Notes under the pieces: generated by a model
Told to the model about the DNA's origin: nothing
The model's input: only the letters and a program-made list of their open reading frames with translations
The model's database searches: none
Program-made: the position numbers and the translations under genes
Assembly: GCA_965649765.1 (NCBI GenBank)
Contig: OZ287751.1
Coordinates: 62,248,001-62,312,000, forward strand
From: Bispira polyomma
Taxonomy: Eukaryota
Length of the DNA stretch: 64,000 nt
Direction of reading: 5' to 3'
Shown here: in pieces, positions 6,001 through 64,000 of the stretch
Numbering within the stretch: the stretch's first letter is position 1
How the letters are laid out: each line of letters begins with the position of its first letter

Positions 6001-6401
6001 AGTATGTTGCATATACTGACCATTTGTTGACTGGTGTGTTGTATACACTGACCATTTGTTGACAGGTGTGTTGTATACACTGACCATTTGTTGACTGGGG
6101 TGTCTTATACACTGACTATTTGTTGACTGGTGTGTTGTATACACTGACCATTAGTTGACTGGTGTGTTGTATACACTGACCATTTGTTGACTGGTGTGTT
6201 GTTTTCACTGACCATTTGTTGACTGGTGTGTTGTATACACTGACCATTAGTTCACTGGTGTGTTGTATACACTGACCATTTGTTGACTGGTGTGTTGTTT
6301 TCACTGACCATTTGTTGACTGGTGTGTTGTATACACTGACCATTTGTTGACTAGTATGTTGTATACACTACCCATTTGTTGACTAGTGTGTTGTATACAC
6401 T
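6001..6401. repeat. 32-bp minisatellite (~12.5 copies)
   Basis: Unit ATACACTGACCATTTGTTGACTGGTGTGTTGT; explains the repetitive ORFs at 5876-6343. Confidence 0.95.
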
Positions 6402-6424
6402 ATTGTGGTGTACAAATTTATCAG

Positions 6425-6560
6425 TAGGAATTAACATCCTTGGGCAAGAAGTGTACATTCATTTGCCTAGTGGCTTGGATAACTACTTAAAATGGCAGTT
6501 CTCTGTCCTGTGTCAGGCTCTGGATCCTTTTGGACGTTGATAAGTGGTCAGCCTCAAGCC
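6425..6560 (+). mobile_element. CORE-type SINE fragment
   Basis: ATCCTTGGGCAAGA..GT...TTTGCCTAGTGGCT.GGAT, matching the SINE at 29070. Confidence 0.5.
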
Positions 6561-19600: not shown

Positions 19601-19983
19601 GCCAGCACAACAACTTTGTCATGGTTCCACAGGACGCCAAGGACAAGTTTTACGAAGAAGGAACTTACAAACCCATGGCTCTGGATCCCAAATCCGGACA
19701 GCTAAAGGACGCCTATCCGGCCCTCCTCAGAGACACGGGTGAACCCTATGAGACGCGGACCCAGGCCGGACACAACCACCCCCATCAGCAACATCTGCAG
19801 CAGCAGGGTGTTCCTCACAAACAGTGCTACTCGGTGGAGAACCACAACATGCAGATCAAGACATTCCCACACGATAGGACCCTCTACCACTCCTTGGATA
19901 CCAAGTGTGGGGACTGTGCATGCCCAAACAGCGGCAATAACAGGTGTGACGTAACCGGCTCAAGATATATAGATGTGGAATGA
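10628..19983 (+). CDS. Spliced gene: signal peptide - SUEL (rhamnose/galactose-binding) lectin domain - CUB-like domain - sushi-like Cys domain - TM helix - Tyr-rich cytoplasmic tail
   Basis: Phase-consistent GT-AG exon chain: 10628-10682 (tentative), 13412/13418-13696, 14530-14783, 15543-15714, 16229-16384/16399, 16849-16908 (tentative), 18644-18728, 19587-19983. Confidence 0.8.
13412..13696 (+). CDS. SUEL-type lectin exon
   Basis: DFCAVESFNVTCP..VILMMHALYGRM..GRC.....GYLGCSSNV...FDAKCSGRPTC.....PC......YLEAAYEC; two in-phase acceptors (13412, 13418); donor G|GTAAGG. Confidence 0.9.
14381..14535. repeat. ~55-bp unit x3 that duplicates the splice acceptor of the next exon
   Basis: TTTGTT.A.ATA...CCTCTTTG.CTCCTTGAAG|TAC.CA-like unit repeated three times. 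Confidence 0.8.
14530..14783 (+). CDS. CUB-like domain exon 1
   Basis: GC......V.GPDGFI ... GVEACPWNIKVKDGQKINLTVMTFG; phase-1 acceptor, phase-0 donor AAG|GTATAT. Confidence 0.85.
15543..15714 (+). CDS. CUB-like domain exon 2
   Basis: ITDGG..KEVPLCG....RERHIYTS..SQV......KYMLHYQ; TTTTCAG acceptor, G|GTGGGT donor. Confidence 0.85.
16229..16384 (+). CDS. Sushi-like Cys-rich exon
   Basis: AVGCANM..PAPNWAVRR...LKVTCNSTGEIWFLICSGSTWVGDIGNCTK; alternative donor CCA|GTAAGC at 16399. Confidence 0.85.
16849..16908 (+). CDS. Possible short linker exon (THNNVRRKSSATVIYHGKL)
   Basis: TTTCTTCTAG acceptor, TTAG|GTTAGT donor, phase 1-1, open frame. Confidence 0.4.
   Translation, partial: VHTTMFEGNPLPLSFTMES
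16925..17250 (+). mobile_element. L2-type LINE 3' end
   Basis: SFAHDAPTLWNELP...FRK.LKTYLFDKTFPP, GCGCTATAAAA, (TTAGA)n tail. Confidence 0.8.
17382..17868. mobile_element. MITE with ~26-bp imperfect terminal inverted repeats
   Basis: CCTGGTCCCACCGGCTGTCACATTAG at left, CTAATGTACATCTGGTGGGACCAGG at right; non-coding interior. Confidence 0.7.
17930..18240 (-). mobile_element. L2-type LINE 3' end
   Basis: Reverse complement encodes AFSIVAPLLWNSFL...; 3' UTR closely matches 46250-46450 and 39790-39870. Confidence 0.75.
18644..18728 (+). CDS. Transmembrane exon (GIIFAVLIGIVLGVTIGALLLLLVHCYKR)
   Basis: Strong polypyrimidine CAG acceptor, ~23-aa hydrophobic helix followed by basic residues, phase-2 donor AG|GTACG; not in the ORF track. 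Confidence 0.88.
19282..19485 (-). mobile_element. L2-type LINE 3' fragment
   Basis: IGSYVFSVAAPMLWCNNLPANIR...LKTHLFILAYP. Confidence 0.75.
19587..19983 (+). CDS. Terminal exon, cytoplasmic tail
   Basis: GGCAG acceptor in phase 2 joins RKQKQSQHNNFVMVPQD...SRYIDVE*; AT-rich 3' UTR with AATAAA follows. Confidence 0.85.
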
Positions 19984-20693
19984 AGTCTATATTTAATGAC
20001 TGTCCTCTTTTTTTTTCTTATATGTTTTCTTTCATGTTTTTTTTTTATTTCTTTATAATAAAAAAAATATTGTTGTATACTTCCTCTTCTTATATGTAAA
20101 TATGTACATGTGATCACAGATATAATTTATTGAAACGATATATAATTATATATATTACACACATAGGTGACTCATTCAATGGCTAACATATATTATATAA
20201 ATATATATAAAGATGGAAAATGTGTGTGTTTTGTTTTCAAAATCAAATTTTTAAATATATGTGCTTCATTCAAATGTGTAAATATTATTTTTATTGAGCT
20301 GTATGCATTACTTTAAGAATAAAGAAATCGTATTCCCAAATGACTTTTGTGCCTTTTAAAACTATAAAAATTTTAACATCATTAATAAATTTTAATTGTG
20401 AATGACTTAACATTAACAGGTTAATCTACAATTTGAAGTCCCAAGGTAAATGTATCAAGGTATAACTGTCAAATTATGAAATTTATAAAAGATCAAGTCT
20501 TTTAGTTCTTACAAAATGATCAGATGAAGCTTCATCCTTCTGAAGAGATCCAATGTTTTTATTATTATTTTAATATCACTTATAATTTCATCTTAACATT
20601 AAGCCTATTCATCCACACGTCAGATATATATTGCCCGGAAGCCAGTTTATTTTTTTCCCAATACTTACAGTGTAGACACTCCCATGTGTCAGA

Positions 20694-20946
20694 GGGGGCT
20701 GCAGTAGCCTAGTGGTTAGCAAGCATTGCGCTTCACAATCACTGGTCTCTCACCTCTGGGCAGCGTGAGTTTGAATCCCGTCGATGCCTATGTGGGAAAG
20801 GTGGTAGTTTCTTACTGTGGGCCGCTGGTTTCTCTGCAGAACCTTGACCGACTGTATGCAGGGTTTCCTCCAGCATTTCCAACTACCCGTCCCAATATAA
20901 CCTACTAAAAGGTACTAGAGTGGACGTTAAATATCCAAATTCAAAT
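20694..20946 (+). mobile_element. tRNA-derived SINE (Meta/MESC-like body), copy 1
   Basis: A box TAGCCTAGTGG, B box GAGTTTGAATCCC, body GGTTTCCTCC...ATATAACC...GTGGACGTTAAA; two further copies in the window. Confidence 0.85.
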
Positions 20947-22339
20947 ACATAAGCATTCTAACATACAACTAATCTCAGTATAAGTAAATTTAGTATGATT
21001 TATCTCTTTAATACTAATGAGATCTCCTACCAATTTTTTTTTAATTGAACAACAGCAATCTATGTTACTACTGAAATAAACAGAATAAAAAGAATTTTTT
21101 TTTTCATTTTTTTTTTCTTTCTTGTCATTAAATTGGTACGCCTGGGCGTACTGGCGTTAATGGTAGCTACGCCCCTGCTCTGTTAACGTGGTGGCCATAA
21201 ATGGGAAATCCTCACAGTAGACTTACTTAACACACCCATAAATGGCCTGTTTGTGCACAACCATGTTTATCCCTACATACTAACACGGTACACACAATTT
21301 ATTCACCTTAAGAGGCTCTTGCATGGTATCAGGTCTGATACCCGTTTAGAATTATCTGATTTACCAACAGAGTTTCCCAACTTGGGGTGGAGAAACCACT
21401 TTATCAGTCGCGTCATAATATGACGCTCAAATAATGCACACACCTTAAAGTCATAGTACATAATATTGCCCCCCCAGTGAGAGCATTTAAAATACACAAC
21501 ACACGTCCGACAATGACGTTTTGATGTCTTACAGAACATGCTGGTGACTTATATGCACAATGTACAATTGTTTGGCTAAACAAAAATTTATTTGAAATTG
21601 CCTTTAATTCAATACTCACATTAATATGAGAACAAAGCTCACTGCAGAATAGATCATGGGTGAGGCCAGCCGCCCCGGGCCTGTGGCACCTAGTCTCGCC
21701 TAGCAGTGGAAGAGTTCTGCCTCTTAGAGCCCCTTGTTCTACCCTGGTCCCCCAGTGGTGGGCTCAGGGGGGAGTTAAAGAAGGCATCCCACTACCCAGC
21801 TCGGGGAGCAGATCTCTAACCAATGAATCTACCCTACGTGAGTGAGTAAATGTGTCAAAAACCCATACTGGTGAAAAGACCCTTAACCTAGTCAGGTAAC
21901 CTAGAAGTCCTAAGCAAATAGCCATACTGTGGATAAGGGGAGGAGGTGGGTTGAAAAATTCCTTCAGTGATGTTTACTGGTGAAAATGTAAATGTAAAAT
22001 GGAGGATAGCTAGTGAAGCTAGAGGTCAAAAGTAGCTAATTATATGATTGGTTAATAGTGTGGATGGACAGAAAACAGGACTATGCCACTGCATTCGCTA
22101 ATTTTTTTAAAGTAGTAGGTATAATAATGGGTGTGAGTTGAACTAGCAGTCACCTAAAGGTGACCTGCTGTGCACAGTCCAGTGTTGGTAAGATTATGTG
22201 CAGTTATGGTAAGTTTTGTTGAAGGCAATAAAAAGATTCTATTTGAGATTTTATTTGATACAGGTTAGTACGTACATACAAGTTTACATAAATGAGAAGT
22301 TAAAATTGAATATCATAAAATTTTAAGCCCCAAACCCAA

Positions 22340-23229
22340 CTAAGAAAAGGGGATAGCTGCAGCGAAAGTGAGGGAGACTACTGAGGCAGCTTGGGAGGTT
22401 TGCTGTAAATATGTCCACTCGGCTGACGATCTCCAAAGACTGAGAGACGTGATATTTTGTAACGAGACATTTTTAATGAAGGCGAAGGTTGCCCCCTGAC
22501 CTTCTTAAAGTATGAAACCCATGTGATTGGTATGGAATCCCTATGTGTCAATACTTTTTGGGAGGGCAAACCTCACATGTGTGTCCACTATGGGGTAAAA
22601 AGGTGGGCAGTTGGCTGAAAACAGTGATGAAGTTTTGGGGAAATCTGTATAATGCGTGTATCACTACGATTCTGTATGTTCTTTGCCCATTTTAATATAA
22701 CGTGAGCTCCTGGTGGAGCAAAAAAGGTCTTGTCTAAGAAAGTATCTTGTAGGGTCAAATCATGCTCGTGAATGAGATGCTATGTTTGAGAGTCTTAGAA
22801 ATCTAAAAAAGGCCAGTAACAAAATGGGTATTGGGTTTTGAAATATTCGGCTTGCTTGTGAGATCTGAGTGAGTTGGCTTATATCAAATATACCCTGGGC
22901 TTAGGCAGAAATGTGGAATTTATTGGGATGCTTCTAATGAACAATAGAGCTGTGTGTAAAGGGAGCCAAGTCTCATTGAAGCTTTCTAGCCATGTATTTC
23001 AGTGATGATAGGTAATTGGCTATCACAGACGGGAAAAGGTGGTTCTGAACAAGGAAATCTAGGAATGCTAATATTGAGTTAACATTAATATTTCTGATAT
23101 CTGCAATGTGTAGGAGAGAAAGAAAAGTCTTGAATTGGTTATTGTAAGCTGTTGATGTCCTCGGACGTAATGTAGTGTCTATTCGATTGCAGGCTGACTG
23201 AATAAGTGGATGTGTGACCCTGGTGGAAC
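22340..23229 (-). pseudogene. E1 tyrosine recombinase remnant
   Basis: LRPRTSTAYNNQFKTF ... HGFHT..RR ... LWRSSAEWTYLQ; frameshifts and deletions. Confidence 0.85.
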
Positions 23230-23234
23230 CTGTA

Positions 23235-25050
23235 ATTATATAGATAATTCCATGTCAAAATATTTTAAAGGAACTTCGTTTCAGTGGTAGCAGTTATATA
23301 ATTTATGTAACATGTCCTCCTTAGGTGGCTTTGCCGAGTATATCCTGGATAGAGCATCTGCAATGATATTAAGTTTCCCTGGAATATGTTGTATGTTTAT
23401 GGTTATGTCATAGGTGGCAGCAAGTAGCTAAATTTTCCTTAAACATGATGCTAGGAATGTGTCCTTCGTTTTCTGGGTGTTCACAACCAGAACCACGGCT
23501 ATGTTCTCGCAGTGAAATAAAATATGCTTATGTGCCCATTTAACCGCCCAGATCATCCCGCATTTCTTAATAAGTATTAATAAATTTATTTTCGTTGTCG
23601 TTATTCCTGAAAGCATTTAAGAGTCTGTTAATAAAAGTGCGAGCTGGTTTGATGCACTTATGAATATAATAATTTCCCTAGGAGAGATTGAAATCTGCTG
23701 AGTGTAATACTACGCCTGCTGTATACATGACTTCAGCATTCGAAAATTTCAGCAATTTTTTCCTGCTGGATACTAATGGTGCCCGAAATAACGTCAATAT
23801 TATTACCCAAACAAGTGATACTTGTGCTGGGTGGAGTATGCTTGTTATTGTTCATTGGCAGACCCAGTTTGTCAAGAAGTTTAGTGAGTATATCAAAACC
23901 TATAATCATTGATGTAGCAGAACATGTTGTGACTATGGCGACGCATATATGCCCCTATTTTGTCAGAAGAACGTTCAAAAGTTGCCCTTCTGTAGACCCA
24001 TCCGAACGCAACTGCGGGATCAATGTAATAACCTTCTTTAAAAGAAATGCCAAATTTCATTGCGTCGACTGGGTCCACCTGGATATTGCGGAAGCCGGCG
24101 CAACGTCAGTTTTGAATAATACCGGGTCCTTCGTTACAGTAATTGCCTTAGTAATGTCATCGATTGTCGGAAATTTTAAACTAAGTTTAGTTCTATCAAA
24201 TTCTGCCTTATTGACGTTCTCATTCAGTGAACGGCCATAATGTTGTGAAAGGTTTAATATGACTCTTCTACTATCTGTGTCTTTGCATTCAGTGCACGGC
24301 CATAAGGGTGTGAAAGGTTTAATATGACTCTTCTACTATCTGTGTCTTTGCATTCAGTGCACGGCCATAAGGGTGTGAAAGGTTTAATATGACTCTTCTA
24401 CTATCTGTGTCTTTGGGGCGGGTCAGTAATGGTGAGCAGTGGTAATGCGAGAATTGTACCTCTGCCACTAGGCCCAAGATGGCCCCTTTGCTTTTTTCCT
24501 TATCCAGGTATTGTCCTACACTTTGTGTATATTGAAGGGCAGAAAAATGATTGACAATAGTATTGTTATTAAGATTGTTTGGATTGGTAAGGGATAATTG
24601 AAAGCCGAATTTTCTGTACTGACATAATAGTTTATCTGGGTAATCTTTAAATACTTCATCCCAAGCTTCTGTGTTCAGACCTGAACGCAATGGGATTCTA
24701 GCTTGTCTATAATTTGGTACTGCAGTCTCTCTGATCACAGATGCAACATACATCTACTGATCTAATGTCCCTATCTGGGCCTATGAATGTAAACTCAGTG
24801 GGGGAAAGTGCTAAGAATCCCATATGCTTAAGGGGTCATTAATGTCCTTAAGTCTGTTTATTAGTGACATTGTCACCTTTATCCAGTTGTAGCATTTAAG
24901 AGAAGTCGTGGTGTGACGGGTTACAGTATATTTTATTACAATCAAGACTCTTAGTCGTCTTGTATTGGTTGTGTGTACTTACTTTAACATCTGCCTTTAC
25001 TTGGTCAGATTTATCGACTAGGTTGGCTATTTTCTCCTCTGTGTCGTCAA
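23235..25050 (-). pseudogene. E1 reverse transcriptase / RNase H remnant
   Basis: [64 protein letters not shown]; deletions and a 65-bp triplication. Confidence 0.9.
24221..24415. repeat. 65-bp tandem triplication inside the E1 RT
   Basis: Units start at 24221, 24286 and 24351. Confidence 0.95.
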
Positions 25051-25099
25051 TTAGTCACATCAATCAATTTATGGATATATACAGTGTAATCAATGCCTA

Positions 25100-26135
25100 G
25101 CTGCTTAATTTATTTATTTATTCCTTTATTCATACACAAGGTATACTATTACAAATACAGAATACATAAATGTTTTCACAACCAGGAACAAGGAACAATG
25201 TTATTAAACACTATTTACAGTTTGGCAGTTACATTAAATTTTATACAAATGTACATAAGGCGCCGCGGTGGCCTAGTGGTTAGCAAGCATTGCACTTCAC
25301 AATTACTGGTCTCTCACCTCTGCGCGGCGTGAGTTCAAATCCCGTCGATGCCTATGTGAGAAAGGTGGTAGTTCCTTACTGTGGGCCACTGGTTTCTCTG
25401 CAGAACCTTGACCGACTGTATGCAGTGTTTCCTCCAGCGTTTCCAACTACCTGTCCCAATATAACCTACTAAAAGGTAGAGTGGACGTTAAATATCCAAA
25501 TTCAAATACATAAACATTCTAACATACAACTAATCTCAGTATAATTAAATTTAGTATGATTTATCTCTTTAATACTAATGAGATCTCCACATATTATTCC
25601 ATCCTCTATGTTAATCTGAGAGTGAACATGCTTGTCACTTATTTTTAAAATTCTTGAGGTGCTGTAAGAGCACATTTATAGCTACAATTAAGTTCCTTTG
25701 AAATTGCATTGATGTTTTTTCTCACAGTAGAATGACTTCCATAAACAGTCAGTCTACCAGCAAGTTCTACACAATTGTTATCACTGGTCAACATTGTATG
25801 TATAAATTTGTTGAATCTTTTATATAACTGCACATTAATTGGGACATCATTGCATACTAAACGTATGTATCTACTATGGGTTCTGTTTGACAGGTTATAT
25901 AGTCTTCTTATTGCTTTTCTCTATGCTGTATGAAATTTTAAAATTTCTCCAGATTCAAAATCCCATAGTACACAGCCATAGAGAGGCATACAATAACTTT
26001 TAAACAATTGTTATTTTACTGACACAGATGCATTTTGAAATATATTAAGTATACTATTTAAAGCAACATTTAATGTATTTATAGCTTCATCTATTGTTTT
26101 GACTTTTTCATTTAAACCGATAATACATGCAATGA
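25100..26135 (-). mobile_element. 5'-truncated LINE (CR1/L2 group, subclade uncertain) inserted into E1 and itself interrupted by the SINE
   Basis: LFKSYCMPLYGCVLWDF...RKAIRRLYNLSNRTH...DLISIKE...EISCMLECLC; (TAAA)n-like tail near 25110. Confidence 0.75.
25259..25506 (+). mobile_element. tRNA-derived SINE, copy 2, with 7-bp TSD
   Basis: GGCGCCGCGGTGGCCTAGTGG...GAGTTCAAATCCC; TACATAA on both sides (25252-25258, 25507-25513). Confidence 0.88.
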
Positions 26136-26856
26136 CTCAAATCAAGTAATAGAATGTATCGACTGCTTGTTTTACAACATTGGGATGATGAACTTCCACC
26201 TCAGTGTTCAATTGACTACTTGAAGTTAACATATGTACCAGGATTATGGTTTCAAAAGTTTGAATAATCTCTAATTCTTCGTCTGGTGGAAGTTCAACAT
26301 TGACGTAAACATGTTTGGCAACAGTCACATTGTGGAAATAACCCCTAAAGTTCTCATTCAGTCCCCTAATATGGACTATGGGAGCAGTTGTGTGAATTTC
26401 TTGGCAATAAGTCTGCTAATTAGTAATTGAAATTTGGACATTGTGTACCCCATTGTTCCAATTCGCCTACTAGGACCGCAGGGGTATTACCTTGCCTGTG
26501 ATTCCAGCATTCTTGACCAATGACCCAAGGTCAGTAACACTTTTTTGTACTACCTTGTCTATTACAGAGGCTGTGTTACTGTATCCTTGGTTTCTACATT
26601 CCTGCAACTATATAGACTGATATATATGGTTAGTGTCATTGTGACTGAGTTCTTGCTCAGCCTTAAAGTAATCACAATTATTGTTGTTATCAATACTGTT
26701 GCCAATACTATTTCTAATCTCATTAACATTATTATTCTAAACGTTTAATCTATTAGTGTAAACAAAATCTATATACTTTATACAACTGTTACTCTTCTTT
26801 ACTTTACTGTCCTTATCACTAACTAAAGTTCGTCCATCTAGTTGTGAAGCAAGATC

Positions 26857-28108
26857 CTAGCTTTTACCTGACTGGTTATCTGGTTGTTTACTCACATTCG
26901 ACTTGAAACATTTGAACTCCAGATATGAGGCGTCTTTTCCTAGTGTCTTGCTACAGTACCAGCATATATGTCTATATGCCCCCTGGTCAGCCTTATAGGT
27001 GCATTTGTCGTTAATAAACAATTTGCAAACTAATTTGTTCTCTGTGGAATCACCATTATTGCCCTGGTTTTTTATTGCAGCCATTTGTGAGGTGCTAAGG
27101 CGATTAAGAGACCATTGCGTGTTTTCTTTCAAGGTCAGCCTCCTGTCTACAATCTCCTGCATGCTGAGGGCCCAGGCTGACCTGATGACTAGCCATGAAA
27201 GGGTAGCAGCATCTCATAACGCATGGATCACCTGGTTGAGCATAAGCTTCATTGTAGCCGGATCCGAAACAAGTAATGAGTTAGACAACTGCCCTGCTGC
27301 CCACTGTGGGAGTGTCAAGTCGTCGAAGGCAGGCCTTTTTCTAGCTGACGTTCAACCCCAGCCCTCATTGGGCCACCTTTACTCGCGGTTGGCCAAAGCA
27401 ATGTCTGTGGTATTAAACCTGCCCGATTTTTGTCTCAATGGGTGCTTACCGTGTGTGATTTCGCTCTGAGCCAGTGCTTCATAATCTGCCGGTTGTCTGG
27501 CTACTGCCGCCTGTATGTTTGTGAAGGATCTGAGTGCGTCGAGATTGGATACTATGCCATCCTTATTGTACCCCTGGTCCACCATCGCTGTAGTGTGCTG
27601 CGGAGGCAACAGAAGCAATTGGCCAAAATGTCAATGCGCCGTTCCTGGATACCGGGCGGGAGGAGGAGGTAATGTGTAGCTTTCCGACCTCTTTGTTTGG
27701 ATAACTGTGCTGTCTCTCATAATGTGAAAATTTGCCGGAGTGATTGTGTTTTGTTTATCTTCTACCTGCTGTAGACGCCTGGTAATACTCTTGTTAGAAG
27801 ACTTTAAGTCTCTCATAATGGACATCATCTCGGACATATCTTGATTATCATTGCCCGGTGGCTGTGTGTAAGAGCCGTGAGATTGATGGGTGAGATGTCT
27901 ATAGGCACGATCTGACAATGCTACAAGTTGTGGGTCTAAGGGGGAAATACTGGATGATGGAAACGTAGCATGAGCTTGGCGTTGTAAACTGGTAGCAATA
28001 TTGTTTACCTGTGTACCACTCCCTTTCGATTCCTTTGTTCCAGCTGTGACCTTTGTTGTTTTCTTAATTTTTTTCACTTTGCACGGGTGCCTTTTTTGTC
28101 CGTCACAT
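26857..28108 (-). pseudogene. E1 gag-like ORF1 with C-terminal Cys/His cluster
   Basis: M*RTKKAPVQ ... KSGRFNTTD ... [17 protein letters not shown] ... CKLFINDKC...HICWYC..FKC. Confidence 0.85.
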
Positions 28109-29069
28109 TGTAACACTATATCACCAAAATGATGACACATTTCGATAAATTAAAATAAACAACTAAATAATAAACCCAAGTAAAATCTGGTTTATTTTCA
28201 TGAAAAATTCCTTCAGTGATGTTCACTGGTGAAAATGTAAATGTAAAATGGAGGATAGCTAGTGAAGCTAGAGGTCACAAGTAGCTAATTATATGATTGG
28301 TTAATAGTGTGGATGGACAGAAAACAAAACCATGACACTGCATTCGCTAGGTTTTTTAAGGTAGTAGGTATAATAATGGGTGTGGACTGAACTAGCAGTC
28401 ACCTAAAGGTGACCTGCTGTGCAAATCCACTGACCTGAATGCATCTCATTTGAACGTGGTATAACTCATTACAGGGAAAACCCTCCTGGCTGAGACCAGT
28501 CTTCGTATTTGCACAGATAAGACTGATCTAATTCACATAGTGGAATCATAATGAATTCCTGCATGATGGATAAGGATAAAATACAAAGACTTTTTTCAGC
28601 ACCAGTATCTATTTATAAAGTCAAACTGCGCTCATATAAACCTTGAGAGAAAAACACTTGAAGAAAGTCCACTAATTTATAAAAGCACATTTTGTTATTC
28701 AGATGTGCAGCCGTGTATATGACCAGAACTCTAAAGACTTCTGATATAATTATAGTAAACTGGAGTCATATTCAAAGCTAATGTTTTCTTACTGTTTTGG
28801 ACATCCCCTCCTGTTTTTTACATAAACAACTCTCTCCCTGTGGATACAACTGTTCGCTTTGTGTGTAGAAGTCTGGTGAACACGTTTTCCCAATGTTTGT
28901 ACGTAGCCTTTCAATTCCTCACATAGTTCAATCTATTCAAAACATAAGTACATGTGATGAGTGTGATTTTTTTTTAATGGACCGTTCACCATGGTTTTCT
29001 TCAATTGAATCTGTTTGAACTGCACTAAATAACTGCATTTTTTTACACGAATAACTTGTTATACCTTGA

Positions 29070-29310
29070 TCCCGTAATCTAGTGGTTAGAGAGTTAGTCT
29101 GGTGATTGTAAGGTCCCAGGTTCTACTACCGGTACTGGCCGGTGGAATAATATCCTTGGGCAAGATGTGAACACGTTTGCCTAGTGGCTCGGATGACTGC
29201 TAAAAACAGTGGTCCCCTATCCCTCAGGACTCAGGGACTGTGAGAAATAGTCATCTCAAATATTGGCACCCATAGTGTCTGCTCACAAGGAAACCCATTT
29301 TAATTGACCT
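29070..29310 (+). mobile_element. tRNA-derived CORE-type SINE
   Basis: A box TAATCTAGTGG, B-box-like GGTTCTACTACC, CORE hallmark TCCTTGGGCAAG. Confidence 0.65.
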
Positions 29311-30223
29311 TATGTTGTATAACTGCATTATAAGCAATAGGATATGTTTTGTTTTGTTCACATCCTAGCTAAATCTGAGATATGATTTTCTAACAAGCTA
29401 CGAATAAACGATATCAACTAATGACATCATAATGGAAGGGTTTTGAAATATAAACAAATACTATATAAAGTTTGAGTTTGTTTTGATAGTAAAGAAATTA
29501 ATCTATAATCTGTTTAACACTTTCGACATATATCAAATATAAGGATTATGCAATCTTATTGCAAATGTTTTTAATGTAGCATAAGTGTATATTTGAAGCT
29601 CATTCTTCAGGGCGACAAGTCGGTCCCGTTTGTTTGTATTCTGCAGTTTGCCGTTAATTTTCAATATTTTGGTGCACCTTCTGACTGCTTTGTGTTACAT
29701 TTTACCTATATAATTATAATAAGTACATTTTATAAGTGGATAATAAAAGTAAGATGTTGACTCGGATGGTATTGGTCATTCTTCTCTCGTAGAATTTGCA
29801 TCACTTGGGTAATTTTTCTATTGAATTCTACGTTAGTGAGACCTAGCAAGGCTAGGGTGTTCCGACGGCTTTCCCCTGATAACACTACAGTAGAGTTATC
29901 AATACATGTATTCACAGTTTTAGCCAGTACTGGGTACTTATAAATGTTGCCACCTCAGTATACCAACATGTCTATACTGAAGTGGACGGTGGCTCCTGTT
30001 TGTTCCTTCCTACAGAAAACGTAAATAAAAACAAAAGTCAGTGGGAATTGTGTATACCATAGGGACCTGGAGTTGTGAACAAAATATATGCTTACAGAAT
30101 TTTGTCTGAAGTAAAGCACAAACTTTTAAAGATTAAGGCTTTTTAATGACTAGTAATTCATTGTTCCTTTAGGACACAAAAAACTAAAAATTAGGAAGTA
30201 CATATACTAGCTAGGAAGTTATC

Positions 30224-30280
30224 ATGGAAACGACGACCGGAAATACGTCAAAGGTCCCCGAGAGCTGTCCCGCAGAAACG
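30224..30280 (+). CDS. NUBP1-like exon 1 ([19 protein letters not shown])
   Basis: ATCATGG start context, donor ACG|GTGAGT. Confidence 0.85.
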
Positions 30281-33200
30281 GTGAGTGAAGCGATTATATA
30301 AAAAGTGATGAAATTAGCTTTTTCTCTTCTGTATATCAGACTATATTATGAAAAGTACATGTTTGAACTATATTGTTTACAAGGGTGCATAATGATTGTG
30401 TATTTAGTGCATACAAAGTTTACTCAATTTATCAATATTCCCCCAATTCACAGGCATAGGATGCCCCCAAATTATGGAAAAAGCTGCTTCCGGATATCTT
30501 TACAGCTTCATCAATATATTTTAGATGAAAACTAAAAACCATTTTGTTTGATAGATCCTATCCTCCCTCACAGTATTTGTTGCCCAGCATTTCCATGGTT
30601 AATAAACCCCTACTGTATAATGGAGACCTTTAACACATTTTTATGTTACAGTGCGAAGGGTCTTTTCAAGAAAGTTACATCAGTTTTCTGCTGTTTACCA
30701 CATATTTGGACAGATTGCCTGCTTGTATGGATTGGCACCAAGTTACCTGATTGGTCTTATCAATCTGAAACCAATTACCAGGCAACTAAGGTCAAATCTG
30801 TCTATCTCATTGTTTATCCCCCAAAGCAGTGACGTCATATAGGGATAGACCATTTGCAGTTGCTGGACCAAAACTTTGGAATGAATTCACTACTTGTCTT
30901 GAATGATTACTTCCAAAGACATTTTAAAATCTAGACTAAATCAAATTTGTTCAAAAATAAACTCTTTGTAAATTCTTAACACTATTTAAATGATAATTGC
31001 TCATGTGTCTGTGAACATTCTATAAAATGGGCACGTTATATCATTTTATTAGTATTATTATTATTGTAAACGTTATGGCCGTGGGAAGCCTGTGATTAGA
31101 GAACGTTGAATTTTAGTGCTTTAACACAGATATTAACCATCTGAAGTCGAATTAGATTACATATGGGTCTACATGTCCACACTTAACTAACTTTGTGTTT
31201 TTTTGTACAGGAACTAGCTGGCAGGTCACGTGTGTGTGAGGGGTGTCCAGGCCAGGCACTTTGCCAGTCTCAGGGTGAGTTAACATTGTCTACAGCTTCA
31301 ACTTCCCTTAAAACAATAACGTCTCAACAATTCTGGATAGATGACTTCAACACCTGAATAATGTAACTTTACAATTTTGTTTATTCTTGAACAACGTTCT
31401 GTTATTTATGGCTGAAAAGTATATCCAATGTTTGCGTGGCAGATAAAAAAATAAATATGTACATCATTTGAATATGTTGCACATAATTCTGTCCAAGCTA
31501 CCAGTTATTATAAAATCATGCCTTTCCTGTTGAAGCACCTACCCTCTGCACCAATTTACCAATCAGAGATAAGATCAGAGTAAACCCACTCGGGCTTTAA
31601 ACGTAACCTTAAGACCCATCACTTCACCCTCGCTTACCCTCCATAGATCTCTTTCACCTCTCCCCTCAATCACTAATTTGCATACGAGATGGACTACGAT
31701 TTTAACAATTTTGTCAATAATGTTGCGCTTTAGAAGCAATTATAGGCACGTTAAAAATCTATCATATCGTACAGTATGAGAAATAAGCTTAAAGGTTATC
31801 TGTCCACCATCTAACTTCTCTCCCGAGTGGCTTTCTTGTAACAACAATTTTCTGGCCAATGAACTATCAGCCTCTTGGTTGAATATATGATAAATATTCA
31901 ATTTGGCACGTTGAATTTGTCAAGCACGTCTACTACTTCAGGGGACTGCTATCTCAGTCCACGTTAATTATATCACTTGACCTTAAAATTTTTTTAGGTA
32001 TAGCTATCCTCAGTGCATTCTATCACAACTACAAGGGCCAATCAAATTCCTTAATTAATTAGCTATTTCCGGTTTTTCTGGGGCTACACCTCCATATTGA
32101 AATTCGACATTGAAGAAACAACAACCAAAAATATTTTAACTTACATGGAAAGTTATATGAACTCGGTTTTTAGTTTATGTTTTTAAAAGTTATATTTTAG
32201 CCTGTTTTATACTATAAGGAAGGTGCTATTGGATTTGTGTGTGAATTGAAATGGGTAGAACAAAAAAGACTCCCGTTCAGCCAAAGAAACCAGCGAGCCG
32301 TAAAACAAAGGTGTCAAAACCTACCACTGGGACAGATGAACTACAGGTAACTAACAATATTGTTCGCAATCTTCATAGCCACCTTAATGAAGTAGAGGAA
32401 CCTATAACTCGACCGTCGAGTGCTGACTCGTTCCAGGTAGATTCACAATTCATACACCCACCGGCTACATCCCACGCAGGGGCTGATCCTCCCAACGAGA
32501 TGTTGGCAATTCTAAGACGATTAGAGTCCAGGCTGGAGAAAGTAGAAGCGAAAACGGCCTCGGGCAGTAACTCGGGTACCTGTACTAGTCAAACCACGAA
32601 CAGTGCTTCTGTTCTCGGACGGGCCAGCAATATTGCTAACAGTTTACCACTGCCCAGATACACTCCCCCATCAGATGTCGGGTTCAGGGACGGTCGGGGA
32701 TTTCCGCAGCCACAACTGGGGCCTACACCACACGAGTATAACAGGGATGGAATTGTTCCCAACTTAGACACTCTACGCTCTATGCCTGATGTTCAGTCAG
32801 CAGTGACACGGCAGCTGGCTAGCTACGAATCTCTAGCTCAGAGAGAACTATCTCAAGGTAAGACCGCCCAGAGAGTTAAGTCTGGCAGATTTAATTCTAC
32901 CGATGTTACCACAGTCGACCCTAGGTATCGTTGGCCGAACGAGGGCTGCTTAGCAATCAACGTCTCCACTTCTGCGCGCAAACGCCCCGCCTATGACGAT
33001 CTGTCACTCCCACAATGGGCAGCAGGCCAAATATCCAACGCTCTGCTGGTTGCAGACAATACAGCAATGAGGGATATGATGACCCAGATTGTTTTCGCAT
33101 TGCGAGACGCTTCATCGCTTCCATGGCCAGTAGTGAGAACCTCATGGGCCTCTAATATGCATGAAGTCGAGGAGGGGCGCTTAACGTGGCAGGATCACAC

Positions 33201-36200
33201 GCAATGGGTGCTGTTCCAAAGTCCTAGGAAAAGAATCTAACCACCCTGAATTTAAATGTTTTAAGGCAAATTCCAGCAAGCAATCTGATAACCAAAATGT
33301 AAAAAATAGTTAGGAATTGTTGATTCGACAGCCAGTTAAGCAATATGGAACATTGAAAGAAACTGTAAATACTGGAGTTAATGAGAACTATGAAAGTGCA
33401 AATATGGTTAATGACAAATATAGCCATAGTAACAGAACTGAGGTATCATTTAGGGAAGCCAATGTAAGAGGAAATTATATTCATAAAACTAATGCCATGT
33501 CAAATGTATTATGTGAGAACATTTCAGGAAGCACGTATGGTGACGTTGGAGCTGTCCAAAGTCAGCAGCAATTGCTTACACATAGCAGGGGACAAGGAAT
33601 GGTCAAGTTGACCACAGGGGAGTGTAGCTCGACCACCTATGTACAAATAAAAGATTGTAAAAATCAAAATCATTCAGTCCACATTCAGAATGGCAGTCAT
33701 GAATGGGGACCAATAAAGGTAAAATTTAATGTAACCAATTGGTACTTATTTTGTTTGACCACATCAAAAAGCTTGCCAGTACTTTACATTGGGGGCCCTA
33801 AAAATTTTAAAAACGGCTTTTATTATAGCCAGACTGATGAAGTGACAGGACAAGAAAGCTACACTCCCTTTGAATTTGAACCTAACGGTATGTTATCTGT
33901 TATTAATTCTTTTGAAATCTGGGTCAACAGAGTTAACGACCTGGCATATGTAAAATTTGATAAAATCACATGTAAATCAGTGCAACAACAGAAACAAGCC
34001 AGTAATGCTTTCCACTACTACAAAAAAGATATGGAGTGTTTAAAGTCTAGTGGTAAAAACTGAGCATCTAGAAGATTTAATTGATAATTTAATTGGATGC
34101 TGTGAAGGTAAAAATACAGATTGTAATATTAGAAATGTAGATGTGACAGACAACTCGGTACAGACTGAAGATAGTAGTGTAAAACCTACTAAGAGCATGG
34201 TAAGTTATTGCGATGAAAAATATACTCACCCTGCGTCGTCCGAATTCTTCTCCCAAATGACATATATGCTCAAGGCTAGTGAACCTGTGAACAGAAATAT
34301 CACAGACATACATGACAAAAATAAGACTGTAGGGTTCCTTGCTTTATCAGACACGGACTTCAAATTTCAAGGTCCAGATAGGCAACCAGTACATATTAGA
34401 ACAGTAGAAGACATGATTGCAATTGCACAAGTAAAAAAGCAGACAGGAGTACCAAATTACAAACAAGCCAGAATACCATTGAGTTCTGGTTTAAACACAC
34501 AAGCTTGGCAATATATGCTACAGGATTATCCTGACAAGTTACTACTTCAATACATCACATTTGGTTTCCCACCTGATAGGTTAGGCAATGTTAAGGTCAA
34601 AAATCATTACTCTGCTTTGCAGTATCCCTATGAGGTGGGTGAATATCTTAAGAAAGAAAGTGATTTAGGTGCTATGTTAGGGCCAGTTAAGGAGGTTAAA
34701 ACTCCAGACTACCATTGTTCTCCACTTCTTACAAGACCCAAAGATACTGATAAACGTCGAGTGATTTTGAACCTGTCTCATCCATATGGCGATTCGCTGA
34801 ATGACAATGTTGATAGGGATCAATTTGATGGCGTGGCATTCGCATTAAAGTTCCCCACAATTGATGATATAATACAAGCCATACGTGACACTGAGAACGC
34901 CACTTTATTCAAAATTGACGTGGCCAGGGCGTTTAGGAATCTACGAGTTGACCCTGTGGACGCAATTAAGCTAGGAATCTCTTGGCAGGGCGAATATTAC
35001 GTGGACCCTGCCATTGCATTCGGGTGGGTTCATGGCAGCGCTGCGTTTCAGCGTTGCACGGACGCAATAACTGCTCACATATGTAAACAGGGCTTTAAAG
35101 TATTCGGATACATTGACGACTACGTTTGCATTGCGCCAGAAGGAACAGCCAACGAGGGCTTCAACAAACTCTACACATTGCTTAAAAAGCTGGGTCTTCC
35201 AATGAACCAAGACAAATTGACTCCCCCTACTACTAAACTTACATGCCTTGGCATTGATTTTGACATCATTAAGGGCATTATAAGTATCCAACCAGAAAAG
35301 CTTAAGGAAGTGTGTGATGTTTGCGTAGAAGTTTTGCTCAAACAATATATATCTAAAAATAAGTTTCAATCACTTCTAGGAAAGCTTTTATACATTAACA
35401 AATGTGGGACACCTGCACGCATCTTCATTAACAGATTACTCGCTGCTTTTAGAGCTGGGCACGCCAACAAGCGCTTTAAAGTTACTAATGAAATGAAATA
35501 TGACCTGGAATGGTTTATAAAATTTTTAGAAAAATACAATGGTGTTAATTTTATTAATCACATTAGTATACCATATGCAGACGAGCTGCATCTGGACGCT
35601 TGCCTCACAGGATTTGGGCGCATTTGGAACCGAGAAGTATATGCCACCCCATTTCATGACTTATTCGATGGAAAATTAACAATTGTACATCTCGAGATGC
35701 TGAACATAGTGATTGCGCTACGCGTATGGGCAGAGAAGTGGAGACATGGTAGTCTTATGATCAACTGTGACAACATGGCTGTGGTTCTGGTTGTTGAATC
35801 ACACAAAACCAGAGATAGTTTCTTAGCATTGTGTTTGAGAAACATCTGGTTACTAACAGCTACTTATGATATTTCTTTACAAATTAGACATATACCTGGT
35901 AAGAAAAATGTTATTGCAGATGCTCTGTCTAGACTATATTCAGACAAAGCTTCTGACCAAGATCTCATAAACAAGATTGACAGTGATTTTGAGTGGAAAC
36001 AAATACCAATTGAATATTTCAACCTGGATTTGTCAATATATTTCAGGTTCCACATACATCAGCCAAATCCTGACGTCTTCAGCCAGTGCTAGGATTGACT
36101 TAGATTTGAGACCAAAGACAATGACAGCCTATAATGCTCAATTTAGAACTTTCTTAGCCTTCCTAGAATTTACAGGTATTACAACTGTAAACGTACATGC

Positions 36201-39200
36201 AGTGATTGCATTCCTGGAATACCTGGTGCAAAACCGGTTATCACCTGGGGCAGTGAACAATTATTTAGCAGCAATAAAATTTGTAGCTTCCAAGTTAAAC
36301 TGGAATCTTACTCCATTTGTACACAACTCAGTAGCACTTTTTACTAGAAGTCTGACACACAACTCACTATTGAGACCAAAACCTAAAGGAATCTTTACCA
36401 TAGAACAGTTGATTCTTATATCTAAGGCCTGTGACATACTTGAAGATCCAATACTATTCAGATAAATTTTCTTAGTGGCCTTCTTTGGGTTCTTGAGGCT
36501 TTGGAACATAGCTCCCCATTCAAAATCAGCTTTTGATCCAACAAGGCACTTTATTAGGCAGGATGTCATTTTTGGCCACCCAGGTGCCCACATGATTCTA
36601 AAATGGGCTAAGAATTTGCAAAATAGAACTGATACTCACATCATACAGATCCCAGTGCTAGATAATTCACACATCTGCCCAGTTATAGCTCTCAAGAAAC
36701 TGCTTTTGTCTAGACAACTTTCGGACAAGGCACCACTGTTTGCTTCAAAAACTACACCATATCACCCAATTGTCGACTCACATGTAAGATCAGCTTCACA
36801 AACAGTTTTACAACATATCAGCATTCAATATAGCTCACATGGGTTTCATGCCTTTAGAAGGTTGGGGGCCTTTAATAAGAACGTTTCTCTACAGAACATT
36901 ATGGCCCATGGCCTCTGGAGGTCCTCAGCAGTATAGACATATCTACAGAATACATCTCAGGCAGCCTCATTGGTCCCTTTGACTTTTGCCTCTGCCATCT
37001 CACACTCTACTTTGGTTTGGCTTGGGGCTTTAAAATTTGTCATGTTTAAAAAATTTTAAGCATTTATTTTATCTGTAACTTCATGTACATAGAATACTAA
37101 CATGTAAAAATAAAACCTCAAAGTGAAATATTTTATTACCTCTTACTTTCAAACTTCAACATAACCATAACTTGACCTTACTTGGATAACTTTGACCTTT
37201 ATCTCAACTTTACTAACGGGGACTGTGTCAAGCACGTCTACTTCAGGGGACTGCTATCTCAGTCCACGTTAATTATATCACTTGATCTTAAAATTTTTTT
37301 AGGTATAGCTATCCTCAGTGCATTCTGTCATAACTACAAGGGCCAATCAAATTCCTTAATTAATTAGCTATTCTCGGTTCTTCTGGGGCTACACCTCCAT
37401 ATTGAAATTTGACATTGAAGAAACAACAACCAAAAATATTTTAACACCCACCACCTCCCCTAATACCACAGCTGGGGCTACGTTAACTAGAGGGCCAATT
37501 GGCACTCTTTGGGCATATTGGAAATGAATCCAAATACAATGGTTAAAGCTGTTCATGTTAAGTGTAATAACTAAAAGGAAACCAGTTTTATGTATTAATT
37601 GCTTAGGGAGTCATCTTGGCTTAATACAAAAAGGGTCACTGTAATGCTCCTCTGGCTGTGTGGAATGAGGGTTCTGCCTTCTTATACTTTCCTCTGAGTT
37701 CATGTCTAGGGTTCCAGAGTAGAATAGAAGCTCTAAGAGGTTTAACTCTCGTCTGCTAGGCGATTCGGTGTCCAAAGCCAGGGGTTGCCAAATGCAGCTG
37801 TTTTTGATCGACTAAGTCAAAGAATTTAAATTGAGGGATGGTTTCTGATATTAAGAAAAAAAAAACAAAAAAAACTTTTGACAATCTATGTTCGTATAAA
37901 GTCAGTTAGTAAACTGTGGAAAAATGAAAAGTTCTGTCATATAATTGATTGGGACATATGTGTATAACCTTGTTATAAATTACAAACGTGTGACTGGAAC
38001 CAGCAGAGTTAAGGGTTTCATTATAGAGACATTTATGGCCTAATTATAGGCACTAAATGGTATATAACATGAGACGTGGTAAATGTAACCAAAAACACCG
38101 TTTATGGGTGGTTTATGATCTGTAGGGAGCTGCTGCCCCAAAGTATTGTTATCACACATAGCACTCTGTTCAATTGGTAAAGAGAATATTGGTATTTTAG
38201 TCTGTAACGTTTATTATGATATATATATTTTACATCATTGTCAGACTTATATTGATGTACGTAATAATGTGTTGATGCAAGTTATTTGCTAAGACTTTAT
38301 TATTTATAATAATATGCTCTTTAAGATGCTATGGTTTATTATGGCTAGTCCTATTTTGGCTAGTCCTTTTTTATGATTGTTATGGAGGCCTGATTGGGGC
38401 TTTAAAATTTGTCATGTTTAAAAAATTTTAAGCATTTATTTTATCTGTAACTTCATGTACATAGAATACTAACATGTAAAAATAAAACCTCAAAGTGAAA
38501 TCTTTTATTACCTCTTACTTTCAAACTTCAACATAACCATAACTTGACCTTACTTGGATAACTTTGACCTTTATCTCAACTTTACTAACGGGGACTGCAT
38601 CATATTGTCTCCGCACTAAAACAAAGTTACCAGACTTCAGGAAAAAAGTTCAAACACATCAACTGTATCAACCCGCTTTACTGCCTTAACATTTATCTGC
38701 TGGCTAAGACTGATCTCTGATCACAAATTTTTTCACCCAAGGGTCTATACTTTTGCATACTGACTAGGTAGTGAGCAATAGAGGACGCCTGATTATCAAT
38801 TGATGCACAATAGAAGTAAAAAACACTAACATTTAACAAATGTCAGCATTTAGTAAACAATAACTCCCGAGACGTGGCTCAGCAGTAAACATACCACAGC
38901 TTTCCTGACAGATATAACTCCTCCGAGTTACAATTTTTTTCAGTTTCCCAGGCTTAAAAAAACAGTGGGAGAATAGACATCTTTGTAAATAATGTACTCT
39001 TCTTTAAAACCAGTGTTATTCATCTTTTGAATCTACCACATTAAAAATTACCAATGTTTATCAGTCATTCCTGGTTTCCTCTTTTTACTGACCACCCATC
39101 CCTTCTCTAGCTACCTTTACTTAAGGGTCCTCCGAATTCCATAAGACTCTCAACCTTCTCCTATCTGAAGCTTTCATCCTTGGTGATTTTAACATCAAAG

Positions 39201-42200
39201 TCGACATATAAAATAAACCTCCTTAACACTTTTGGTTTCTCACAGTTTATCTCCAGTTCAACCCACATCCACAATCACATACCTGATCTGGTAATTGCAG
39301 GACCCAATTCAAATCTGATCAGTTAATCATAAGGTAACTGACGGTATTTGGATCATCTAGCAACCTTTGCCCATTTATTTGCCAGTACCTGCCTTACAAA
39401 AATCAATAGCCTTTTCGTTTGACACTCATATTGCCAACATCTGTCTTTCGTGCTATTACCACATACGCAACATCAAAATAATCCGAAACCACCTGTCAAT
39501 GGACACTGCGATAACTATGGCTAATGCCCTTGTGAGCAGCTGCCTGGACTACTGCATATCTCTTTTGTTCGGAGTAAACAAGTCCCAGTTTAAACAGCTG
39601 CAGTCCATTCAAAACTACCTATTCAGGGTGAGCTTTCTTCATTGCAGCTCCCTTGTTATGGATCAGTTGACACACTGATCGGTTTTAGAAAAAAGCTTAA
39701 AACCTATCCTTTTAACCTTGCCTACCCACCTTAGCTTCCCTCGTGCAAGCCCCACATCTTTCCTTACGACCTTACTATGCCCATGGACTTTATGATTGGA
39801 TCAATGATTCTGCTGTTGCGCTTTATGAAATGCCTAGCATCAATAAAGCACGTTAAAAATTCATAATATTAATACTACATTGAACTGACATGAAACATTC
39901 CCTTACATTGAACGGACACCATAATTCCCTTACATTGAACTGACGTCAGACATTCCCTTACATTGATCTTACATGAGACATTCCCTTACATTGACCGGAC
40001 ATGATACATTCCCTTACATTGATCTGACATGAGACATTCCCTTACATTGATCAGACATGAGACATTCCCTTACATTGAACTGACATGAGACATTCCCTTA
40101 CATTGATCTGACATCAGACATGAGACATACCCTTACATCGATCTGACATGAGACATTCCCTTACATTGATCTGACATCAGACATGAGACATTCCCTTACA
40201 TTGATCTGACATGAGACATTCCCTTACATTGATCTGACATCAGACATGAGACATTCCCTTACATTGATCTGACATGAGACATTCCCTTACATTGAACTGA
40301 CATCAGACATGAGACATTCCCTTACATGGATCTGACATGAGACATTCCCTTACATTGATCTGACATCAGACATGAGACATTGCCTTACATTGATCTGACA
40401 TGAGACATTCCCTTACATTGAACTGACATCAGACATGAGACATTCCCTTACATTGAACAGACATCAGACATGAGACATTCCCTTATATTCAACTGACATG
40501 AGACATTTCCTTACATTGATCTGACATGATATATATCCATACACTCCTACAGGAGGCCCTGACCCTGACCAAGTCAGTATTGACCTGAGGATGGGTGCAG
40601 TAAAACACAAACTACTAGTGCTCTCAGGAAAAGGAGGTAAGAATCATGTGACCACCACCTAACACTGTCAAGGGGTCATGGTGGTCTCTTGCCTATAATT
40701 TTATCTTATTTAATGTATAAATGCTCAATTTTCTACATATTTAAGTAGTAGTTCATACCGTATCAATCTGTTAACGGTGTATGTGCATTTTTGTTTTGTC
40801 AGTTTACAACTAATACAAAATATCTATTTTTTTCAGAAACCCAAAATACCTCCTACCCCCCAAAAAATTATTTTAACTTAATTTGTGACCGGTTTGTATA
40901 TATCAGTACAACAGGGACACATATAAAATTTTGATTTTAGTGATCTAACTTGACAAATTAATGATAATGGTAACTTTTTAAAATTCGCAAATATATCAGA
41001 AGCTGTTGTGAATGACAAATATATCTAGCATTGTAAATGATAGTAGTTTTGAGGTCATTTATCACTCATTAGGGCAAACAGGAAACACTAGATGACAAAA
41101 ACATTTCCAAAGTTTGACCTTGTTTTCACTTGATTAAATGTATGCATTCCTTTTTGGTCACCATAAATCATCTTCAATAATAGTTAATATTCAAGAAGTC
41201 AATATGTACATATACATGTATTACTCTTGTAATAAAAACCAATTTTGAGATGTTCTGTTTACTATATGTTATAACGGGGGCTGACATGTTCAATTTAATA
41301 TATCACAGCTTTTGCTTTACAACAGGGGTGAAAGTGGCTTGTTTTACATATATATTATAACTCCTATATTTACACAGTGGGCTGAGATGTCCCATTTACT
41401 GTGTCTTTTTGAATTTGAATTTGGATATTTAACGTCCACTCTAGTACCTGTTTAGGTTATATTGGGACGGGTAGTTGGAAACGCTGGAGGAAACACTGCA
41501 TACAGTTGATCAAGGTTCTGGACTGAAACCAGCGGCCCACAGTAAGGAACTACCACCTTTCCCACATAGGCATCGACAGGATTTGAACTCACGCCGCCCA
41601 GAGGTGAGAGACCAGTGATTGTGAAGTGCAATGCTTGCTAACCACTAGGCCACCGTGGCCCCATTTACAGTGTCATATTGTCACTCTTGTTTAAAGTATG
41701 TAATGTTTAACACTCTCAACCCCCAGGGTTGTGGACATGCAGTTGTTGGCATTTGTTATTCCCAGTTCCTATGTCTGTCGGCAACCAGTTGACACCCTAC
41801 AAATATTATTGTATTTTCCTTCAGTTCCTCGCAATAAGAAATTGTACAGAAGGCTGTTATTGAATTCCGGAAGTAGTGTGTGTTTCAATGACTTCAGCTA
41901 TTTGTAACCTATTAGCTCAGTCAGTTCTTGGCAATATTTTTTCCTGGGGTCGTAAGGTTTTAAGCCCCTTTCTCACTATAGTGGTAGTGAGATTTATCTT
42001 GTGCAGATAAGTTTTACAGACGGAAAAAGATAAGAAAACACGATTACTACAGTAGTGAAATGGAAAAAGGGTAAAACAAGCGAAATGGGCGGAAACTAGA
42101 GAAAGAGTTAAAATAGTGAAACAGAATACAAGGAAATAGACTGAAATAGTCGGACATGGGCAGAAACACACCATTACAGGGACGGAAGACTTACAGTACT

Positions 42201-63200: not shown

Positions 63201-63490
63201 TAAGCATATTATTGCTAGAACAAAAGTGGCATTACTGTGAATAGTATTGTATGGTTTACGACAGCAGCAAGCTGGAAGGGAACAACTGTATCGGAAAGGT
63301 ACTCCTATTTAGAAACCTGCAGAGGAATGTGTTATAGCATTCCAAGGTAACATGTGTTTAATTTAGAACATTCAAATGTCCATGTCATTCATCAACATCG
63401 TAGTCCAAGAACACAAACCATAAATGTTGTTGATATCAATCAACAATATTGCTACTATAATTTTGCCTATATGTACGCTGTGTACACCAG

Positions 63491-63629
63491 TAAGCTGGAT
63501 GTAAAACAAGTCCAGGTAGGACCTTACCAGATCATGTATGCTGAGCGTGGCCTCCCTGGTGTCAAGTCCTCTCTCCTCTTGGTCCATGGGTTCAGCGTTG
63601 ATAAAAATGTATGGATGAGAGTGGTGAAG
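63491..63629 (+). CDS. ABHD6: Exon of an ABHD6-like alpha/beta hydrolase (monoacylglycerol lipase family)
   Basis: YQIMYAERGLPGVKSSLLLVHGFSVDKNVWMRVVK resembles ABHD6 (Y..RG.PG....LLMLHGFSA.KD.W..VVK); CCAG acceptor, AAG|GTGAGA donor; the rest of the gene is unlocated or outside the window. Confidence 0.75.
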
Positions 63630-64000
63630 GTGAGAACAGTATGCCTAAATAAATATTTTAGTCATACAAATTTACAAAATATGAAAAAAAATAATATAAA
63701 GTATGTTTTACCCAAATTGTATTTGTAAACAATTAATGTTTTTCATACATTATATGTAACAGTCATAGCTTTACACAGAGATATATGTTATGACGTCTGT
63801 GTCTATAGTGAGATGTTAAAGATTTCATGTTCCCTGTTCATCTTATTGTATTGTGTATAGTGCAAGGACAATATCAACCCCCTTACCACTGGGCCATGCA
63901 ATGTCACCAGTAAATTAAAAGGGAGTGTTAGACACTGGCTCAGGTTAGCATTGCAGTGGAATATGCTTGAATTTCTCAGCCAATTTGATATTTACCCGTA

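Follow-up and report, generated by a model that had tools for sequence, protein, structure and literature searches.

Conserved in-phase splice sites predict a spliced Gag-tyrosine recombinase fusion in Ngaro-like retrotransposons of Bispira polyomma

Introduction

For retroelements of the order DIRS, the only proposal that we found in the literature on how the tyrosine recombinase (YR) is translated comes from Poulter and Butler 2015, who, as quoted in the accessible text of PMC13003380, describe a YR start overlapping the reverse transcriptase (RT)/RNase H frame in the -1 frame and call translation by frameshift "probable". In fungal Ngaro elements the YR is either in frame or shifted, according to the available portion of PMC3783388, and this variation suggests, as far as those excerpts go, that a frame-independent mechanism would suit as well. 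The accessible part of bioRxiv 10.1101/2023.08.03.551782 reports that in insect endogenous retroviruses of the gypsy group splicing produces a subgenomic RNA without pol, from which env is expressed, and that in the idefix subclade env is spliced to a Gag peptide. Here we analyze a stretch of 64,000 nucleotides of the Bispira polyomma genome (GenBank assembly GCA_965649765.1, contig OZ287751.1, positions 62,248,001 to 62,312,000 of the forward strand), hereafter the window, which carries two decayed copies, E1 and E2, of an Ngaro-like element. The family to which they belong preserves a splice donor within gag and an acceptor in front of the YR, and both sites, which lie in the same phase, point to a recombinase made from a spliced RNA as a fusion with the N-terminal part of Gag.

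Paired splice sites in the window and across the family

The first-pass annotation of the window had placed a strong donor at the same gag position of both copies and a matching acceptor at the end of RNase H, and each of these sites is present (a slash marks the cut): CTCAAG/GTAAGA at 32857/32858 and TATTTCAG/GTTCCAC at 36046/36047 in E2, and, on the minus strand, CACACG/GTAAGC at 27450/27449 and ATTACAG/GTTCCAC at 23230/23229 in E1. As had also been stated, both sites of E2 are in phase 1, and their junction would connect the first ~202 residues of Gag to the YR (ELSQ-G-STYIS); the join is in frame because exon 1, counted from the ATG at 32251, measures 607 nucleotides (nt), that is 202 codons and one base, and 36047 occupies the second position of a codon in the YR frame. 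E1 is likewise in phase 1 at donor and acceptor. In the family the RT stop falls 9 nt before the acceptor, and E2 lacks one base near 36039 relative to its relatives, so that its RT frame runs past the acceptor.

Copies were collected from the whole genome (1.04 Gb in 75 contigs), 80 out of 150 YR matches being fetched. Forty further stretches were fetched and 25 kept, namely 15 E1-like copies and 10 of 20 loci from a donor-pattern list; the remaining 15 comprised five junction-pattern matches without homology and ten stretches non-homologous at the site. The ten donor-pattern loci that were dropped (eight without homology, two consisting of RT or YR pieces only, with the motif at a non-homologous place) include most of the sampled non-GGT matches. 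With E1 and E2 the sample amounts to 107 copies, which fall into 33 clusters at 80% identity and whose representatives are at the median 59% identical. In L015, L088 and L093 the acceptor was positioned manually; the acceptor and RT-stop analyses exclude L008, L061 and L075, in which a deletion or duplication crosses the site.

The first-pass annotation had proposed examining whether GGTAAG and YAG stay invariant at synonymous positions across the family, and both sites came through strongly. The donor, mappable in 95 copies, retains GT in 91 and the full GGTAAG in 87. Its glycine is encoded by GGT in 30 of 31 cluster representatives, whereas no codon exceeds 73% in any of the 77 remaining conserved four-fold columns, and its lysine by AAG in all 29 representatives, against a preference for AAA in 13 of the 14 other conserved lysine columns. 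Among 1014 aligned codon pairs of the subfamily representatives, GGTAAG is the most conserved (93%, the runner-up reaching 70%), beyond what chance would give, and the mid-gag donor is the only strong donor common to all 25 representatives scanned. Some 500 nt before the main donor, at window position 32346, stands a second donor-like CAG/GTAA, with similar sequences in L014, L016, L027, L111 and L121.

At the acceptor, 91 of 100 copies have YAG/G where it is expected; of the other nine, three are rearranged, two have a shifted site and four carry point changes. The 27 representatives follow the pattern TAA-TT-N-Y-A-G/G, with T at -5, Y at -3 and A at -2 in all 27 and G at -1 in 25, while -4 is free. 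These bases are explained by neither protein, since they lie behind the RT stop, and A at -2 is constant although the YR-frame residue at the acceptor can be S, V, T, I, A or L. The nearest upstream AG lies at a median of 44 nt from the acceptor, versus 13 nt at 1199 control YAG sites. Constraint at donor and acceptor thus acts on nucleotides. In 83 of the 86 copies having both sites the predicted junction codon is glycine.

The proposal that the recombinase comes from a spliced mRNA from which pol has been removed therefore finds support in the conservation throughout the family, including groups in which a frameshift cannot work (see below). On the strength of this conservation we consider it quite probable that the YR is made from a spliced RNA joining the N-terminal part of Gag to it. 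The two sites are likely joined to each other in RNA, and the resulting fusion is likely the working recombinase.

Relatives in other assemblies

The sites recur in part outside B. polyomma. Sixteen metagenome loci were found and the phase was checked in five, in all of which a pyrimidine-rich phase-1 acceptor precedes the YR; three more look similar by eye. One of the metagenome loci, L123, is 40% identical in RT and 46% in YR. Gag is included in four of these distant relatives, two of which carry a phase-1 donor at the corresponding place. The other two, L126 and L132, of a more distant lineage, share a phase-1 G/GTAAAT in the zinc knuckle (L126:1036 and L132:1815). Among 56 homologous YR proteins that reach far enough, 47 show at the acceptor position a pair [STAPLIV][GD] after hydrophobic residues, compared with 20% in control windows; the pair resembles a translated acceptor, although it may be a protein motif and the sources may be few genomes. 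Scans of GTDB and of viral sequences returned no relatives, and a PDB sequence search nothing relevant.

Opposing observations and alternative explanations

Several observations, including some that are taken up with the alternatives below, weigh against a spliced fusion. No transcript junction has been seen. The copy counts are not independent owing to shared ancestry, but the control columns have the same relatedness as the donor columns among the representatives. The AG-free zone upstream of the acceptor may be due in part to the codons of the RT tail. L126 and L132 have no GT at the homologous gag position, and the donor may have moved in their lineage. Two database proteins, P0308 and P0440, do fuse the N-terminal part of Gag to YR, but their joins lie past the donor glycine, by 3 and about 13 residues, and ~23-27 YR residues are missing; they are not precise splice products, because their joins are off the predicted sites and YR residues are absent.

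Nor was a precisely joined genomic copy found in the clades tested with six patterns, five degenerate ones of which would match 67 of the 86 predicted junctions; the spliced RNA may be rarely copied, or not made. The 14-mer TCTCAAG-GTTCCAC, which spans the E2 junction, has five matches in the genome (about four are expected by an estimate from base composition; control, one), none homologous to the element, and L081 and L122, considered as joined copies, are chance matches. A search for longer, fused YR proteins found none, which is weak evidence, and a gag profile search for fusions yielded only two unfused Gags (L123 and L125). Three genome-scale contig runs of unclear kind, compared with E2 and L065, gave no predicted joint among the joints listed (15 of 21 and 15 of 65), which is evidence in neither direction. 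We found no paper on spliced YR expression in the literature, although Poulter and Butler 2015, Goodwin and Poulter 2004, other subscription papers, supplements or Repbase entries may hold a remark on it.

The alternative that survives best, although we judge it unlikely, is that the acceptor is real but joined to another donor, such as that of a leader or early-gag exon, or that the YR starts at an internal ATG, with the mid-gag donor used for something else, for example to bind U1 or to splice the N-terminal part of Gag to Pol. The first-pass annotation had stated that no YR start codon is conserved between the copies; this holds for E1 versus E2 but not across the family, where 68 of 98 copies, belonging to 13 of 27 clusters by representative, have an ATG nine codons into the YR. 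E2 itself has ACG there (36073); all eight other members of its cluster in which the acceptor was located show ATG. The same codon is missing in the other 14 clusters, and in clusters 8-16, E1 included, the YR frame runs for 56-99 codons before its first ATG (79 in most, beyond the SAM-like domain of residues 17-78), so the ATG nine codons in is not a general start. Another donor is at hand in six of 25 representatives, which have CAG/GTAA ~500 nt farther upstream, but this site is not common to all and is in phase 0 in E2, whereas the mid-gag donor alone is universal and phase-matched to the acceptor. As to another purpose for that donor, many clusters have a phase-1 YAG 4-10 codons behind the gag stop, and U1 protection of full-length RNA figures as a section heading in the accessible part of PMC5580714.

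A programmed -1 ribosomal frameshift at the RT/RNase H end, giving Gag-Pol-YR, would accord with the overlap in the -1 frame that Poulter and Butler 2015 describe, as quoted in PMC13003380, an overlap of 4-79 nt kept in most clusters, and five of the 25 clusters parsed do hold an in-phase slippery heptamer in it (such as AAATTTA/TTTAAAT, alternatives). A canonical heptamer is, however, missing in the other 20, the overlap shrinks to just 4 nt in clusters 1 and 3, and a frameshift leaves unexplained both the synonymous freeze of GGT AAG and the invariant AG beneath a variable residue. In two groups it is impossible: in all five copies of cluster 24 (L047, L055, L057, L062 and L063) because the RT stop is in frame with the YR, two codons before the acceptor glycine, and in L123 because a gap of ~306 nt separates the RT end (3617) from the opening of the YR frame (3924). 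Both groups keep the phase-1 donor and acceptor, in L123 as CAAG/GTAATT and TTTTGTAG/G. Taken together, these points make a frameshift very unlikely as the route to the YR. That protein constraint and AT-rich codon use alone produced the motifs, with no splicing at all, is hardly credible: the Gln-Gly-Lys and Gly-Ser-Thr residues are conserved and splicing is without RNA support, but codon use at the donor stands out when 78 four-fold and 123 two-fold columns are compared, AAG opposes the AAA bias, and the acceptor bases are fixed while the encoded residue varies.

Proposed expression plan

If the N-terminal part of Gag is indeed spliced to the YR, one transcript could serve the whole element. 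Unspliced RNA would be translated into Gag and, through likely readthrough of a single TAG, into Gag-Pol, and would also be the template that is copied. Pol is in frame with gag, no stop intervening between the gag stop and that of RT in five copies, and the gag stop is TAG-G in 62 of 68 copies parsed. The spliced RNA would drop pol and link about 200-330 N-terminal residues of Gag to the whole YR through one glycine, the Gag part supplying the start codon of the fusion; more speculatively, the Gag half could bring the YR into the particle. An in-frame UAG-G between gag and pol is also what gammaretroviruses read through, and foamy virus makes its enzyme, pol, from a spliced RNA of its own. 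Those are unrelated elements with DDE integrases, and the foamy virus pol carries no Gag half.

A CAR-CYA-G motif occurs within 10 codons of the gag stop in most clusters (window 33311-33340; L049, L050, L053, L065 and L076) and could either promote readthrough or act as a second phase-1 acceptor, one that would fuse the N-terminal part of Gag to Pol. Distant relatives have an in-frame TGA in place of the gag TAG.

As in the gypsy-group elements of insects described in the accessible part of bioRxiv 10.1101/2023.08.03.551782, the third open reading frame (ORF) is predicted here to be expressed from a spliced RNA that skips pol, but in the present case it encodes an integration enzyme, the Gag part extends over 200-330 residues, and there are neither long terminal repeats nor env. 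Conserved alternative splicing also sets the protein output of the Arabidopsis Ty1/Copia element EVD through a subgenomic gag RNA (PMC5580714, in its accessible part); there splicing yields Gag alone, whereas here a Gag-enzyme fusion is predicted. The elements described as Ngaro-like in the available portions of PMC9210276, PMC4157794, PMC8547959 and PMC3783388 differ in that here pol is in frame with gag behind TAG-G, the spacer described below separates A2 from B2, and in place of the frameshift proposed for them, conserved splice sites predict a fusion of the N-terminal part of Gag with the YR.

We lean, if only slightly, toward a broad Ngaro-like lineage with a retrovirus-like plan, in which one transcript would give Gag, readthrough Gag-Pol and, where retroviruses make Env, a spliced Gag-recombinase whose Gag half would carry the YR into the particle. 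Should this plan be true, the frameshift model would fail in this lineage, and perhaps in animal Ngaro elements generally. Exact splice junctions are now predicted for the expression of an Ngaro-like YR, and if they are used, the working integration enzyme would be a Gag-YR chimera, not the annotated ORF3, which would bear on annotation, on enzyme biochemistry and on explanations of target choice and packaging.

Classification and architecture of the elements

E1 and E2 are Ngaro-like YR retrotransposons by the definitions given in the accessible parts of PMC4157794 and PMC9210276. Their recombinase is a tyrosine recombinase and not of the DDE integrase type, with Pfam matches to SAM-like and PF00589 domains and conserved catalytic R, K, H-x-x-R, H and Y (alignment A1), and an ORF for RT and RNase H (PF00078, PF13456) sits between gag and YR. 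In L065 the YR follows directly after pol, whose end lies ~36 residues past the RNase H match. Split direct repeats are arranged as A1-ORFs-B1-A2-B2 in E2 (Table 1), with the internal pair behind the YR. The A repeat pair is present in E1, and among five loci examined both pairs were seen in L065, L076, L016 and L111 and the B pair only in L031. A PAT-like assignment would fit the split direct repeats, but a methyltransferase domain was not detected by Pfam in the pol of E2, L123, L126 or L065; a DIRS1-like one, which would call for inverted terminal repeats and an internal complementary region, was rejected, no inverted pair bounding E1 or E2.

Whereas B1A2B2 is written as contiguous for Ngaro-like elements in the available text of PMC8547959, here a non-coding spacer of ~0.7-0.95 kb, a family trait, parts A2 from B2. 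It starts with CCCACCWCCTCCCC in six of six aligned copies (37446-38393 in E2, from 21952 downward in E1, and in L065, L076, L111 and L016) and also holds a conserved block around CTGCTAGGC; Rfam gave no match within window positions 20000-40000.

Both copies in the window are decayed. The YR of E2 is interrupted by stops at 36463 and 36934, and its gag is shortened by an internal deletion that takes out the zinc-knuckle region, its relatives having ~203 codons after the donor. The predicted intron is mostly 3.3-3.5 kb in relatives of E2.

Table 1. Features of E2 and E1, in window coordinates
Feature	Position	Strand	Remark
E2 repeat A1, 5' end of element	31933..32140	+	family D7, 97% identical to 37238-37445
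E2 gag ORF	32251..33240	+	first 202 codons = predicted exon 1
E2 phase-1 donor AAG/GTAAGA within Gln-Gly-Lys codons	32855..32863	+	conservation
E2 predicted intron, gag 3' half and all pol	32858..36046	+	3189 nt; inferred from sites
Gag stop TAG then G, pol next in same frame in uninterrupted relatives	33311..33314	+	predicted readthrough
E2 pol (RT and RNase H), frame broken near 34058	33314..36092	+	PF00078 E 3.6e-9, PF13456 E 1.1e-4
E2 phase-1 acceptor; family form TAA-TTNYAG/G, RT stop at -9	36030..36047	+	
E2 tyrosine recombinase, predicted exon 2	36046..37020	+	PF13495/PF02899
E2 repeat B1	37022..37230	+	family D6
E2 repeat A2	37238..37445	+	family D7
E2 non-coding spacer between A2 and B2	37446..38393	+	
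E2 repeat B2, 3' end of element	38394..38602	+	
E1 repeat A1	28201..28423	-	family D4
E1 phase-1 donor ACG/GTAAGC	27444..27452	-	cut 27450/27449
E1 phase-1 acceptor TAATTACAG/G	23229..23245	-	cut 23230/23229; RT stop at -9
Decayed E1 tyrosine recombinase, with its first ATG 79 codons in	22340..23230	-	
E1 repeat A2	21952..22174	-	family D4

Other features of the window and genome

E1 is interrupted by an interspersed repeat of ~330 nt (25254-25588), which occurs twice more in the window (20690-21027 and 41406-41662), and it contains in addition a further stretch of foreign sequence, ~1 kb long (about 25600-26500), as well as a 65-nt triplication (24221-24415). Frames resembling exons of host genes lie at 13357-13725, 14490-14861, 19540-19983 and 63351-63728; by eye we take them to be Cys-rich, lectin- or CUB-like, with a presumably hydrolase-like piece at the window end. 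The intervals 5906-6449, 39869-40553 and 53353-55031 hold tandem arrays of 32-nt and 28/35-nt units and, by eye, a decayed pair of DNA-transposase-like frames on the minus strand. Elsewhere in the genome, L087, L090 and L093 contain near position 1200 another group of elements, whose first ORF begins with MA(D/E)KQ(I/F)LQGK and has a Cys/His motif, adjoining RT or YR pieces, and eight copies of a related element recur every ~29.4 kb in a tandem segmental array (G000:C3:15.67-15.88 Mb).

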